A stretch of DNA of 64,000 nt from assembly GCF_003790525.1 (NCBI RefSeq), contig NZ_CP033635.1; one strand, 5' to 3'. This stretch comes from Escherichia coli. GTDB lineage: Bacteria; Pseudomonadota; Gammaproteobacteria; Enterobacterales; Enterobacteriaceae. The position numbers were made by a program, and so were the translations under genes. The notes below the pieces were generated by a model, which saw only the letters and a program-made list of their open reading frames with translations, made no database searches and was not told the origin of the DNA. Below, piece after piece: positions 25,078-53,425 of this stretch (its first letter is position 1; the number at the start of each line of letters is the position of its first letter).

Positions 25078-25839
<762 letters not shown>

Positions 25840-25876: not shown

Positions 25877-25890
25877 TCCCCTCTGGGGAG
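25877..25890. repeat. left copy of island-flanking direct repeat (att core) tcccctctggggag
   Basis: Identical 14-mer recurs at 52665..52678. Confidence 0.75.
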
Positions 25891-26018
25891 GATCTATTGA
25901 TATCAACTGATTTCAACAGAGCTAACCCCTCCCCCTTTAACCCCCTTTGAAATAAGATATCATCAGAAATTCCTTTTCTCTGGGGGTCAATCATATTCCA
26001 TGAACATCAAGATGATTT

Positions 26019-26040
26019 TGGGGGCTATTCTGGGGGCTAC
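26019..26040 (+). repeat. tandem TGGGGGCTAT / TGGGGGCTAC repeats (candidate integrase arm-type sites), left end
   Basis: Two copies 12 bp apart just upstream of int; a related TGGGGGTCAA at 25981; the same pair recurs at the right end. Confidence 0.55.
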
Positions 26041-26056: not shown

Positions 26057-27250
26057 ATGCCACTTACTGTTCGACAAATTGAGTCGGCTAAACCTGCTGA
26101 CAAGGATTACAAACTTTCTGACGGTCAGGGCCTTTATCTTCTTGTCAAAAAATCCGGTGCCCGTTACTGGAATCTGAAGTACCGGTTTGCCGGTAAGGAA
26201 AAGAAACTGGTGATTGGTGTCTATCCTGACATATCACTGGCTCAGGCTCGTCAGAAGCGGGATGAAGCACGTAAACTTCTGGCTGAAGGTAAAGATCCGT
26301 CGTATGAAAAACAGGCGCGAAAACTTGCCATCAGGGAAAGTATGGCCTGCACATTTCGCACCATTGCAGAGGAGCTGCTTACTCATATGGCACGTCGATG
26401 GACAACAGGTTACCAGGCAGACCAGCGTGCAAGACTTGAAAATCATGTTTTCCCTGCTCTTGGAAACCGTCCTGTGACCGGGATCCGCCCCATGGAAATA
26501 CTGAACGTCCTGAGGACTATAGAAGAACAGGGAAAACTTGAAGCACTGCGTAAAACACGCCAGCTCTGTGCGCAGGTTTTTGATTATGCCATAGCAACAG
26601 GGCGTGCAACCGTTAATCCGGCATCGACACTCAGCGGGGTACTGCTTCCTCCTGAAAAACAACAGCGCAGGACGCTTTCTGAAGAACAGATAGGAGCTTT
26701 CATGTATCAGATAACGGCTTCCGGAAATCTGATGTCGCTGGCAACGCGGATGCTGGTTCTGACCGCTGTTCGCACCGGAGAACTGCGACTGGCAACCTGG
26801 GACGAAATTAATTTCACGGAGGCCCTGTGGGTTATTCCGAAAGAAAGAATGAAAATGCGACGACCGCACGTTGTGCCGCTTTCACGGCAGGTACTGGCGT
26901 TACTGGAGGAGATAAAAACACGCACTGAATCGCGTAATTCCGCCTTTATTATTCCTGGTGCATTCAGAAAAGATCTCCCGCGAAACCGCAAGTGTATCAA
27001 TGAATTCCTTGAGCAGTCAGGCTGGCATGCCCTGACAACAGCCCACGGATTTCGTCATACCTTCAGCACCATTCTCCATGACCATGATTTCAGCTCAGCC
27101 TGGATTGAACTCCAGCTTGCTCATGTTGATAAAAACGTCATGCGTGGCACTTATAACCATGCGCAATATCTGGATGGACGTCGTGAAATGATGCAGTGGT
27201 ACGCTGATTACATTGATTCACTTATGGAGAAAAACGTAAAAACGAAATAA
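26057..27250 (+). CDS. tyrosine site-specific integrase, phage P4 / CP4-57 IntA type
   Basis: 397-aa ORF with P4-integrase-like N-terminus and C-terminal catalytic HGFRHTF ... HxxR ... Y motifs. Confidence 0.9.
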   Translation: MPLTVRQIESAKPADKDYKLSDGQGLYLLVKKSGARYWNLKYRFAGKEKKLVIGVYPDISLAQARQKRDEARKLLAEGKDPSYEKQARKLAIRESMACTFRTIAEELLTHMARRWTTGYQADQRARLENHVFPALGNRPVTGIRPMEILNVLRTIEEQGKLEALRKTRQLCAQVFDYAIATGRATVNPASTLSGVLLPPEKQQRRTLSEEQIGAFMYQITASGNLMSLATRMLVLTAVRTGELRLATWDEINFTEALWVIPKERMKMRRPHVVPLSRQVLALLEEIKTRTESRNSAFIIPGAFRKDLPRNRKCINEFLEQSGWHALTTAHGFRHTFSTILHDHDFSSAWIELQLAHVDKNVMRGTYNHAQYLDGRREMMQWYADYIDSLMEKNVKTK

Positions 27251-35503: not shown

Positions 35504-36418
35504 ATGCACTCAATAAAAAAAGTAACCATGCTCCTGGGGTGCCTCGCCCTCACCTGCTCGATAGCATTTCAGGCGAGTGCAACTGAAAAATTCAAGGTCA
35601 TTACAACATTTACCATCATCGCAGATATGGCCAAAAACGTGGCTGGAGATGCTGCAGAAGTCTCATCCATAACCAGGCCCGGTGCAGAAATTCATGAGTA
35701 TCAGCCTACCCCTGGCGATATTAAACGTGCGCAGGGGGCACAACTGATTCTCGCCAACGGTATGAATCTGGAATTGTGGTTCCAGCGCTTTTACCAGCAT
35801 CTCAGTGGGGTTCCAGAAGTGATTGTCTCTTCGGGTGTGACGCCAGTAGGGATCACCGAAGGCCCCTACGAGGGAAAACCTAACCCTCATGCCTGGATGT
35901 CGCCAGATAATGCTTTGATTTACGTCGATAATATTCGTGATGCGTTGATAAAATACGATCCGGCAAATGCAAAAACATACCAACGTAATGCCGATACTTA
36001 TAAAGCCAAGATTACCCAAACCCTTGCCCCCCTGCGTAAGCAGATTGCTGAACTCCCTGAGAATAAAAGATGGATGGTCACCAGTGAAGGGGCTTTTTCT
36101 TATCTCGCACGCGATTTGGGGCTAAAAGAGCTTTATCTGTGGCCGATAAATGCCGATCAACAAGGAACACCCCAGCAGGTACGTAAAGTGGTTGATATAG
36201 TGAAGAAAAATAATATCCCAGCGGTATTTAGTGAGAGTACGGTTTCCGATAAACCAGCGCGTCAGGTTGCGCGTGAAACCGGCGCACACTACGGCGGTGT
36301 GCTCTATGTCGATTCCCTGAGCACAGAAAACGGCCCGGTACCTACGTATATCGACCTTCTGAAGGTTACTACCAGTACGCTGGTGCAGGGAATTAAAGCC
36401 GGGAAAAGGGAGAAGTAA
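35504..36418 (+). CDS. sitA: metal (Mn/Fe) ABC transporter periplasmic binding protein, SitA/YfeA/MntC (TroA) family
   Basis: 304-aa ORF with signal peptide and TroA-like metal-binding fold; Fur and MntR boxes upstream as in sitABCD/yfeABCD operons. Confidence 0.75.
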   Translation: MHSIKKVTMLLGCLALTCSIAFQASATEKFKVITTFTIIADMAKNVAGDAAEVSSITRPGAEIHEYQPTPGDIKRAQGAQLILANGMNLELWFQRFYQHLSGVPEVIVSSGVTPVGITEGPYEGKPNPHAWMSPDNALIYVDNIRDALIKYDPANAKTYQRNADTYKAKITQTLAPLRKQIAELPENKRWMVTSEGAFSYLARDLGLKELYLWPINADQQGTPQQVRKVVDIVKKNNIPAVFSESTVSDKPARQVARETGAHYGGVLYVDSLSTENGPVPTYIDLLKVTTSTLVQGIKAGKREK

Positions 36419-40473: not shown

Positions 40474-41211
40474 TCATGTACAGCGCTGTACCGGGCAATG
40501 GGTAATACCGGTCACAACCGGTAACCCCAGAGACAATGCAACTGTTTTTAACGCAATATACTGGCCGGATGTATCACCCCGGGCAGCCTGAAAACACCTT
40601 TCCACCCGGCATTGTCCGTCAGCACTTATCACCCGCCATGTCTGTTGCAATAAATCCACCCGTTGCGAACATTCTTCATCAACCGTGGCACTGACCCGTG
40701 GATGGCAAATGCTCGTCTGGCTGAGCAGCAACAGGCATCGCATTGTTGCTCCTCCATGTTGTTCCCGCAACCAGCGTAATACCACCGGTGGTGCTGGACT
40801 GGCCGTGTGATTACGTTCAGTAATACGCTCGTGCACCTGTCGGTAAAAGGAAGTACAGAATGCATGAATCTGTTGTCCGTTGATGTTTCCTTCTGCCGAA
40901 TGGAGTGTGAAGTGGACGGCCAGCAGACGCGGCCAGTGATCCACCGCCTGCTGAATAAAACGCCGGATTTCCACCGGCTCTGAAAGTACGGTTTCGGTTA
41001 TTTGCACGATTTGATCCCCTTGAATGTTGCTGAACCGGTGTCGGTACGCAGGAAAGCACGCCGAGACCGGTACGATGCCTGTTACAGCGAAGAACGAGGA
41101 ATGACAGACGGGGGCAGCAGGTCGCCAGCACCAGGGACAGGGCTGATTTCCACAATACCAACGCTGGTATTTTGCACATTGCCAGCGTACCGGCATTACA
41201 ACACGTTTCAT
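40474..41211 (-). CDS. hypothetical protein, weakly YagK/YfjJ-like (third paralog)
   Basis: 259-aa ORF trimmed to Met 15; central segment RLLAVHFTLHSAEG... resembles the RVDLRFP-type region of the two adjacent YagK/YfjJ-like proteins; competing frames exist. Confidence 0.4.
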   Translation of the reverse strand: MKRVVMPVRWQCAKYQRWYCGNQPCPWCWRPAAPVCHSSFFAVTGIVPVSACFPAYRHRFSNIQGDQIVQITETVLSEPVEIRRFIQQAVDHWPRLLAVHFTLHSAEGNINGQQIHAFCTSFYRQVHERITERNHTASPAPPVVLRWLREQHGGATMRCLLLLSQTSICHPRVSATVDEECSQRVDLLQQTWRVISADGQCRVERCFQAARGDTSGQYIALKTVALSLGLPVVTGITHCPVQRCT

Positions 41212-41432
41212 GCTGCTGCCCCTCGTGATGCCTCGATTCGTTGCTGCATCCACTGCTCCACTTCACTTTTGTACCAGCGGCTGCTGCGCCCCAGTTTGAT
41301 GGGTTTAGGGAAATGGCCTTCACTGATCAGCTTGTAAAACCATTTGTCGGTCATACCAGTGAAGCTGGTGATGTAGTTCATGTCGATCAGGGGATCGTCG
41401 GCACGCAGCAATACGCTGTCGTGACCTGTCAT
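41208..41432 (-). CDS. alpA: AlpA-family (P4 Vis-like) transcriptional regulator
   Basis: Small ORF with FTGMTDKWFYKLISEGHFPKPIKLGRSSRWYKSEVEQWM, the AlpA/Vis HTH signature; start codon uncertain (Met 5 or Met 22). Confidence 0.7.
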   Translation of the reverse strand: MTGHDSVLLRADDPLIDMNYITSFTGMTDKWFYKLISEGHFPKPIKLGRSSRWYKSEVEQWMQQRIEASRGAAA

Positions 41433-41512
41433 TGAGGTCAACATGGTCAGAATGTCCTCTGTGAGATTTATGAATGTTGGGCAAATGCGGGTGAATCTGC
41501 TGAGCTGAGCTT

Positions 41513-52458: not shown

Positions 52459-52583
52459 ACTTACAGATCACGGGTATTGTGTCTCGTCCTGAACAGGGCC
52501 GACAGGTATACTGCATTCGCTGAGCCATTACAGATAATGCCTCAACTGAGTTCAATCTACCTCCATGTACAACAACAATACGA

Positions 52584-52605
52584 TGGGGGCTACATTGGGG
52601 GCTAT
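52584..52605 (+). repeat. tandem TGGGGGCTAC / TGGGGGCTAT repeats (candidate integrase arm-type sites), right end
   Basis: Same motifs and 12-bp spacing as at 26019..26040, same orientation. Confidence 0.55.
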
Positions 52606-52664: not shown

Positions 52665-52678
52665 TCCCCTCTGGGGAG
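52665..52678. repeat. right copy of island-flanking direct repeat (att core) tcccctctggggag
   Basis: Identical to 25877..25890. Confidence 0.75.
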
Positions 52679-52765
52679 AGGATTAGGGTGAGGGGCGCAA
52701 ACCCGCTCCGGGGCCATTAATTACCCTGAATTTGATTATTTACACCACGGTAACAGGAACAACAT

Positions 52766-53425
52766 ATGCAGTTTGACTGGAGTGCCATCTGGCCAGCCAT
52801 TCCGCTTCTGATTGAAGGTGCCAAAATGACCCTGTGGATCTCGGTCCTCGGTCTGGCTGGCGGCCTGGTGATCGGATTGCTGGCAGGTTTTGCACGCACC
52901 TTCGGTGGTTGGATAGCCAACCACGTCGCGCTGGTCTTTATTGAAGTGATCCGCGGCACACCTATCGTCGTCCAGGTGATGTTTATCTATTTCGCCCTGC
53001 CGATGGCGTTTAACGACTTACGCATCGACCCGTTTACTGCGGCGGTGGTCACCATCATGATCAACTCTGGCGCGTACATTGCGGAAATCACGCGTGGTGC
53101 GGTGCTGTCTATTCACAAAGGTTTTCGTGAAGCAGGACTGGCGCTCGGTCTTTCACGTTGGGAAACCATTCGCTACGTCATTTTACCGCTGGCACTGCGT
53201 CGTATGCTGCCGCCGCTGGGTAACCAGTGGATCATCAGCATTAAAGACACCTCGCTGTTTATTGTTATCGGTGTGGCGGAACTGACCCGTCAGGGGCAAG
53301 AAATTATTGCCGGTAACTTCCGCGCCCTTGAGATCTGGAGCGCCGTGGCGGTGTTCTATCTGATTATTACCCTGGTGCTGAGCTTTATTCTGCGTCGTCT
53401 GGAAAGAAGGATGAAAATCCTGTGA
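52766..53425 (+). CDS. glnP: glutamine ABC transporter permease GlnP
   Basis: 219-aa ORF. Confidence 0.95.

Follow-up and report, generated by a model that had tools for sequence, protein, structure and literature searches.

Paired repeats at both ends of a BoxC-inserted Escherichia coli island as probable arm-type sites of its P4-family integrase

In this study, we examined a stretch of 64,000 nucleotides from Escherichia coli (contig NZ_CP033635.1, hereafter the window), in which glnH (25093-25839) and glnP (52766-53425) are split by 26.8 kb of island. The two flanking genes belong to the glnHPQ operon, and expression of glnP would depend either on read-out from the right end of the island, where a DUF4942 gene points in the direction of glnP, or on a promoter yet to be mapped. 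The island ends were fixed by aligning attL and attR to the unoccupied glnH-glnP spacer of E. coli K-12. This alignment places the attL copy of the shared segment, TCCCCTCTGGGGAG (general form CCCC-N3-GGGGAG), at 25877-25890 on the plus strand; it is the first hairpin of the BoxC/PIT/TMECO-type element found between glnH and glnP. The attR copy, again TCCCCTCTGGGGAG on the plus strand, lies at 52665-52678; the remainder of the BoxC-type element, AGGATTAGGGTGAGGGG, comes next, before glnP. Across the 11 left ends of related islands that we examined, the left junction, GGGGAG followed by GATCTATT, was identical in all 11.

Beside the left junction lies int (26057-27250, plus strand), which encodes a P4-family tyrosine integrase of 397 aa with the Pfam domains Arm-DNA-bind_3, Phage_int_M and Phage_integrase. 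The first of these (PF13356) covers residues 3-87 at the N-terminus (E 4.6e-28), and the protein as a whole is 36% identical to phage P4 Int over its full length (415 aligned positions, E 4e-79). A second protein of interest is encoded on the minus strand at 41208-41444. It is an AlpA/Vis-like small DNA-binding protein of 78 aa (Phage_AlpA, PF05930, E 2.6e-10) that shares 33% identity with P4 Vis over 51 aa and has a weak match, below the curated cut-off, to an excisionase domain; from these similarities it is a candidate recombination directionality factor (RDF). The right half of the island is CP4-like, with genes for an inovirus Gp2 family protein, a GTPase, DUF932, antirestriction, JAB/RadC, DUF987, CbeA/CbtA, DUF5983, DUF957 and DUF4942 proteins. 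The left half holds cargo together with IS remnants, and looks mosaic and decayed; the cargo of the island includes TPR and EcsC proteins and an outer membrane protein. At and around 35504-36418 we observed sitA, then a truncated sitB, along with fragments of ISAs1, IS66, IS2, IS1 and IS256, and the cargo also comprises an Rpn-family nuclease and extra copies of yebF- and dolP-like genes.

Each end of this island carries two copies of the word TGGGGGCTAY. On the left, that is, on the int-proximal or P' arm, TGGGGGCTAT (ending in T) occupies 26019-26028, 128 bp from the core, and TGGGGGCTAC (ending in C) occupies 26031-26040, its end 16 bp before the int ATG. On the right, or P, arm, TGGGGGCTAC is found as an exact match at 52584-52593 and TGGGGGCTAT at 52596-52605, the latter ending 59 bp before the core. 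All four words are on the plus strand and at most 160 bp from the island junctions. The first-pass annotation of this sequence had drawn attention to the left pair, and its exact words and 12-bp period are as described there. It had also described the right pair as the same in spacing and orientation, which holds for the 12-bp period and the orientation, but the order of the T and C forms is swapped (T, C on the left; C, T on the right). Its placement of the right pair 60-80 bp inside the right boundary was accurate, with the pair ending 59 bp before the segment shared with the empty K-12 site.

These four exact copies are the only ones in the window, against 0.17 matches expected, and none of 100 dinucleotide-preserving shuffles reached four. 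Beyond the island, no copy was found in 543 kb of other fetched loci, where 2.07 were expected. When two mismatches were permitted, the window gave 64 matches for 78 expected; because this is no enrichment, the signal consists of the four exact copies. A third, degenerate copy had been proposed at 25981. The sequence TGGGGGTCAA is indeed present at 25981-25990, but three of its ten bases depart from the word and its G-run is not kept in relatives, related islands reading CTGGATGTCAAC or CTGGACGTAAAC, and we rejected it as an arm site. The conserved part of this region is instead an overlapping TCAAYC word, which has a right-arm counterpart at an equal distance of 26 nt. The C-runs at 25925-25950, which read GGGGG on the minus strand, were likewise considered as inverted arm sites and rejected, as they are not conserved in UTME-7 or strain 2/0.

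Joined in a circle, the two ends would give an attP in the order pair (P1, P2), 59 bp, CCCC-N3-GGGGAG, 128 bp, pair (P'1, P'2), 16 bp and int ATG (26057). The arm words are found on both attP arms and outside the crossover segment, 59 bp from it on one side and 128 bp on the other, and they are distinct from the core in sequence, having in common with it only a G-run. A pattern scan of both arms with the IHF consensus gave one near-match in attL and none in attR. This word, TATCAACTGATTT (25901-25913, plus strand), departs from WATCAANNNNTTR at one position; it lies 10 bp away from the core in the direction of int and is a candidate bending site. The block CTGATTTCAACAGA is mostly invariant in five diverged left arms, with a single C/T difference at its third base. 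Scans of both arms for sigma-70 promoters and for terminators found nothing.

The arms resemble each other beyond the pairs. They share an imperfect direct repeat of about 60 nt that extends past the pairs and scores 39 in alignment, compared with 16 ± 2 in shuffles. Inside this repeat sit the conserved word TCAATC (25987-25992, plus strand), which is exactly 26 nt upstream of the left pair and overlaps 25981-25990, and its counterpart at 52552-52557 (plus strand), 26 nt upstream of the right pair. In relatives the left word is kept as TCAAYC or TAAAYC, and the right one as TTCAATC or TTCAATA in six right arms; it may be a site for an accessory protein or an element of the int promoter. In many distant relatives, GGTCAAC precedes the local pair by about 26-27 nt, and an AATCAAG block is present as well. 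A 9-mer, AATAAGATA, is also common to both arms (25951 and 52641), but is only partly kept in relatives and is absent from the ula right arms.

To place the window among its relatives, we compared related E. coli islands at 11 left and 6 right ends; their int genes are 84-100% identical at the nucleotide level. In all of these ends, among them five diverged left arms that were aligned, GGGGGCTA and the 12-bp period are invariant. The surroundings are freer. The two bases between the words vary (TC, TT, TG or TA on the left; AT on the right), as do the tenth base of the word (T or C) and the first base of repeat 1 (T or C), and the pair ends 16-17 bp before the int ATG. On the right, the pair is the last conserved block before the core, and the spacer to the core measures 59 bp in all six right ends, even in UPEC 26-1, where its sequence is unrelated. 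On the left, core and pair are 128 bp apart in eight loci, and three others (L005, L097 and L098) have 138 bp. This 10-bp indel, adjacent to the core (compare window positions 25891-25900), amounts to about one turn of the helix, so that the arm sites would roughly keep their rotational phase with respect to the core. Thus, in the homologous islands examined, the arm words are kept while inter-word bases, spacer and insertion locus change. Relatives agree well along the entire left arm (87% mean column identity), so that the persistence of the left pair, taken alone, does not discriminate; the stronger evidence comes from the right arm.

In the wider E. coli collection, the left pair with its flanks (39 nt) was found in 89 of 5426 complete genomes, and a query spanning the clade's left end and int was mostly present in 90 of 5426, the two sets being compared by their numbers. 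At the sensitivity reached, the pair is seen only in a genome set of the size of the int clade, and it is also present in every homologous island examined. Both outcomes agree with the proposal of the first-pass annotation that the pairs are arm-type sites of the integrase, to which geometry, the PF13356 domain, the P4 annotation and word conservation all lend support at the level of sequence. Some genomes, for example NZ_AP045773.1 (strain 23CRST013), give as many as three matches to the int query and likewise three to the right-pair query, which suggests several islands of the window family in one chromosome. The gln island of strain 23CRST013 is about 39 kb long, as opposed to 26.8 kb in the window.

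The closest known parallel is phage P4, and the correspondence extends to most elements of the layout. The P4 record (NC_001609) annotates pairs of a 12-bp "attP arm sequence repeat" flanking a core at 4097-4078. On the far side of the core from int, the P4 pair lies at 4174-4151 (GTGGGGGCACAA AAGGGGGCATAT), compared with 52584-52605 in the window (TGGGGGCTAC, then TGGGGGCTAT), and is separated from the core by 53 bp (59 bp in the window, the core copies being those at 52665-52678 and 25877-25890). On the int side, a spacer of 112 bp (128 bp in the window) leads to the pair at 3965-3942 (TTGGGGGCATAA TTGGGGGCATCT), which corresponds to 26019-26040 (TGGGGGCTAT, then TGGGGGCTAC), and the pair ends 15 bp before int in P4 and 16 bp before it in the window. 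Both elements thus have two tandem words with a 12-bp period on each side of the core, all in one orientation, with a word built on GGGGGC; both encode homologous integrases with the same N-terminal arm-binding domain, and both encode a Vis/AlpA-type small protein elsewhere in the element. The words are near-identical but not the same (GGGGGCTA in the window, GGGGGCAT in P4). Two further differences concern the int start, over which P4 has an inverted copy that is absent from the window, and the core, which is a BoxC hairpin in the window, whereas that of P4 lies in a tRNA-Leu gene. The inverted copy, TAGCCCCC, was absent between the pair and the int ATG in all five aligned members of the clade. 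The attP arm repeats of P4 are said to have been first described by Pierson and Kahn in 1987. The TGGGGGCTAY repeats are very likely P4-type integrase arm sites, and as such they are ordinary and already known in kind.

The same arrangement recurs more widely in the family. A scan with one genome per species returned 80 loci, 75 of them usable, with integrases 34-55% identical to that of the window; because this search in other species gave only integrases of at most 55% identity, all close relatives come from the E. coli collection. At about 45 of the 75 loci, the 110 bp upstream of int contain an exact repeat of a word of 7 nt or more with a period of 10-13 bp, in the great majority of cases 12 bp; our own estimate of the chance rate is about 2%. 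The repeated word differs by clade, being GGGGGCT, GGGGGCAT, GGGGGTA, TGTATAG, GCGGGCAT, ACGGTAT, GTGTATCC or GTGTATGCC, and a word that tracks the clade in this way is the behaviour that would be expected of a site read by the integrase's own N-terminal domain. In most of the paired loci, an inverted copy of the arm word abuts the int ATG and overlaps the ribosome-binding region; the window clade has lost this copy, which may mean a different mode of int control. Around 60 of the 75 relatives lie 160-315 bp, mostly 160-200 bp, downstream of a tRNA or tmRNA gene. With 166 bp from core to ATG, the window keeps the geometry of these tRNA- and tmRNA-sited relatives.

Taken as a whole, we consider it highly probable that the P4-family integrase encoded on the island uses the four TGGGGGCTAY words as its arm-type binding sites. 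Such a reading builds on the arm architecture, the domain content of the integrase, its P4 homology and the conservation of the words with clade-specific variation. The integrase would be heterobivalent, its N-terminal domain (residues 3-87) holding the four arm words and its core-binding and catalytic domains holding the crossover segment CCCC-N3-GGGGAG. The DNA between arm and core would be bent, probably by IHF at TATCAACTGATTT in the P' arm, and the resulting intasome would recombine attP with a chromosomal BoxC hairpin. One pair is found near each island end because integration splits the pairs between attL and attR. The left pair precedes the int start codon by 16-38 bp, and Int bound to this pair probably also represses its own gene. 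The scan of the attL arm detected no sigma-70-like promoter, which leaves this step of the model without a mapped target. Excision would additionally require the AlpA/Vis-like protein encoded at 41208-41444. A mutant design for each arm would change GGGGGCTA to CCCCCGAT.

Autoregulation of this kind has precedents. For IntS of KplE1, attL overlaps the int promoter and negative autoregulation has been demonstrated, and down-regulation of the P4 integrase is referred to in the discussion of the same paper (Panis et al. 2010, PMC2951348). Similarly, IntI of PAI I536 represses its own promoter (PMC7286903). The KplE1/HK620 IntS-TorI system is like the window in that int points away from attL, so that its control region and the P' arm sites overlap; its integrase is negatively autoregulated. 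It differs in its arm word, which contains TAAA, and in having its RDF sites and promoter mapped (Panis et al. 2010, PMC2951348). Lambda Int offers the more general parallel of a heterobivalent integrase with arm sites that are distinct from the core sites, lie on both attP arms and have bending sites between (PMC2951348). It belongs, however, to another protein subfamily with another site sequence and 2 + 3 sites (P1, P2 and P'1-P'3), and lambda int is not read from a promoter inside attL.

Other explanations of the pairs can be weighed against the same evidence. They could be sites for the recombination directionality factor, here the AlpA/Vis-like protein (41208-41444), and not for the integrase. 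We regard this as unlikely: RDF sites normally occupy one arm only, as in lambda, KplE1 and P2/186, whereas here identical pairs are found on both arms. The homologous repeats of P4 are moreover annotated as att arm repeats, and over 75 loci the word changes with the integrase clade, a comparison made on the integrase side only. The proposal does draw on the presence of an AlpA-family gene in the island and on the period of the repeats, since RDF sites are typically direct repeats about one helical turn apart (PMC7498355), which 12 bp fits.

Somewhat less probable still, in our judgement, is that the pairs are relics of an ancestral duplication of about 60 nt between the island ends, being either functionless or only expression signals (a leader or operator of int on the left, a read-out ORF or promoter on the right). 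The imperfect repeat that reaches past the pairs would be explained on these terms, and so would an ORF at ulaE that starts in the right arm and runs in frame through the pair into the gene. Within that repeat, however, the two GGGGGCTA words are the longest perfect blocks and stay invariant where the flanks of relatives have diverged; the core stays 59 bp away even across a spacer of unrelated sequence; and paired words arranged in this way are shared by P4 and the majority of the family. Mere chance recurrence of a G-rich 10-mer is suggested only by the shortness of the word, and with none of 100 shuffles reaching four copies, none found in 543 kb, and the position and conservation of the words, it is refuted and retains a negligible probability.

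The attB of this island is not a tRNA gene but the first hairpin of a dispersed BoxC/PIT/TMECO repeat, represented in the window at 25877-25890 and 52665-52695. The consensus of this repeat is CCCTCNCCC-N3-6-GGGNGAGGG-N3-GGGNGAGGG, with 23 copies in K-12 (Holder et al. 2015, PMC4666352), and the attB sequences of window-type islands match it. At every BoxC left junction, the chromosomal part reads CCCTC(N)CCCC-N3-GGGGAG, and at the right junction it reads AGGGTTAGGGTGAGGGG; joined, the two parts give the BoxC/PIT/TMECO element. The reconstructed 49-nt BoxC element occurs at a median of 19 places per genome in 5425 genomes. We found insertions at seven loci, namely between glnH and glnP, between lptG and yjgR, downstream of ycjD, gcvP, yhfS and zntA, and inside ulaE, where the island sits, in both orientations, at a chance palindrome, CTCCCCGCCGGGGAG. 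Single integrase accessions recur at different loci, WP_001131672.1 at glnH, lptG and ycjD, and WP_072648864.1 at gcvP, ycjD and zntA. Of the unoccupied counterparts, the lptG-yjgR site is intact in E2348/69, K-12 has TMECO copies 10 and 11 between ygfF and gcvP, and the K-12 copies at the gcvP, ycjD/sapF, yhfS and zntA positions are the sites used by islands.

The central triplet of CCCC-N3-GGGGAG differs among sites and sometimes between attL and attR of one island. It is TCT at both ends in the window, TTT (B-type) in attL and TAT in attR of CM2, and AGC at locus L089; the gln-site attL of strain 2/0 has GCC, and the sole unoccupied gln site examined, that of K-12, reads TAT. Such differences hint at a position of the triplet inside the exchanged segment, with some tolerance of mismatches. 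At the right end of the AR_0085 island in ulaE (L087:1566-1760), an ATG in the conserved right-arm block CTCCATGTACAAC opens an ORF, beginning MYNNNTMGATLGAIFSRKTNIVQLNQQNEKISPLPAGECWLE, whose frame continues across the two arm repeats and the core and joins that of the truncated ulaE; RefSeq annotates the fusion as the epimerase gene. This frame may be open by chance, or the island may provide a replacement N-terminus.

Earlier work on these repeats found raised strain-to-strain variability at TMECO loci but never an integrase adjacent to them (Holder et al. 2015, PMC4666352), whereas here an integrase island abuts a BoxC/TMECO repeat at six loci. The loci themselves have been encountered before, as papGII islands of uropathogenic E. 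coli are inserted at glnP-glnH and ulaE-ulaD according to passages of Biggel et al. (2020, PMC7686366), and window-type islands use these same loci. The passages in question treat integrases as specific for one site, in contrast to the clade of the window, in which integrase accessions are found at three loci, and they describe neither arm sites nor a BoxC target. Compared with the papGII islands as presented there, the window also differs in its cargo (sitA remnant, TPR, EcsC, outer membrane protein and the CP4-like right half). Our literature search, in a collection that was incomplete and on which priority cannot be claimed, returned no paper linking BoxC/TMECO repeats with an integrase. 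On balance, we think it probable that the integrases of this clade have exchanged tRNA genes for the BoxC first hairpin as their target, with about 20 potential attB sites per E. coli genome, that they can also use the ulaE palindrome and tolerate triplet differences, and that the variability at TMECO loci is in part caused in this way.

In conclusion, the arm-site layout of P4 appears as a family-wide rule in which the word tracks the integrase clade, and this rule may be used to predict arm sites, island ends and integrase specificity from sequence. For pathogenic and avian E. coli, the finding also provides a precise, testable map of recombination sites for a family of pathogenicity islands in the gln and ula operons and in BoxC repeats. 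BoxC targeting is the more unusual point, matters more than the arm sites and is worth following up. With a multi-copy repeat as attB, a tyrosine integrase can land at many loci, even in the middle of operons such as glnHPQ and ula, and, if the proposed targeting is true, such islands would be one concrete cause of the strain variability reported at TMECO loci.
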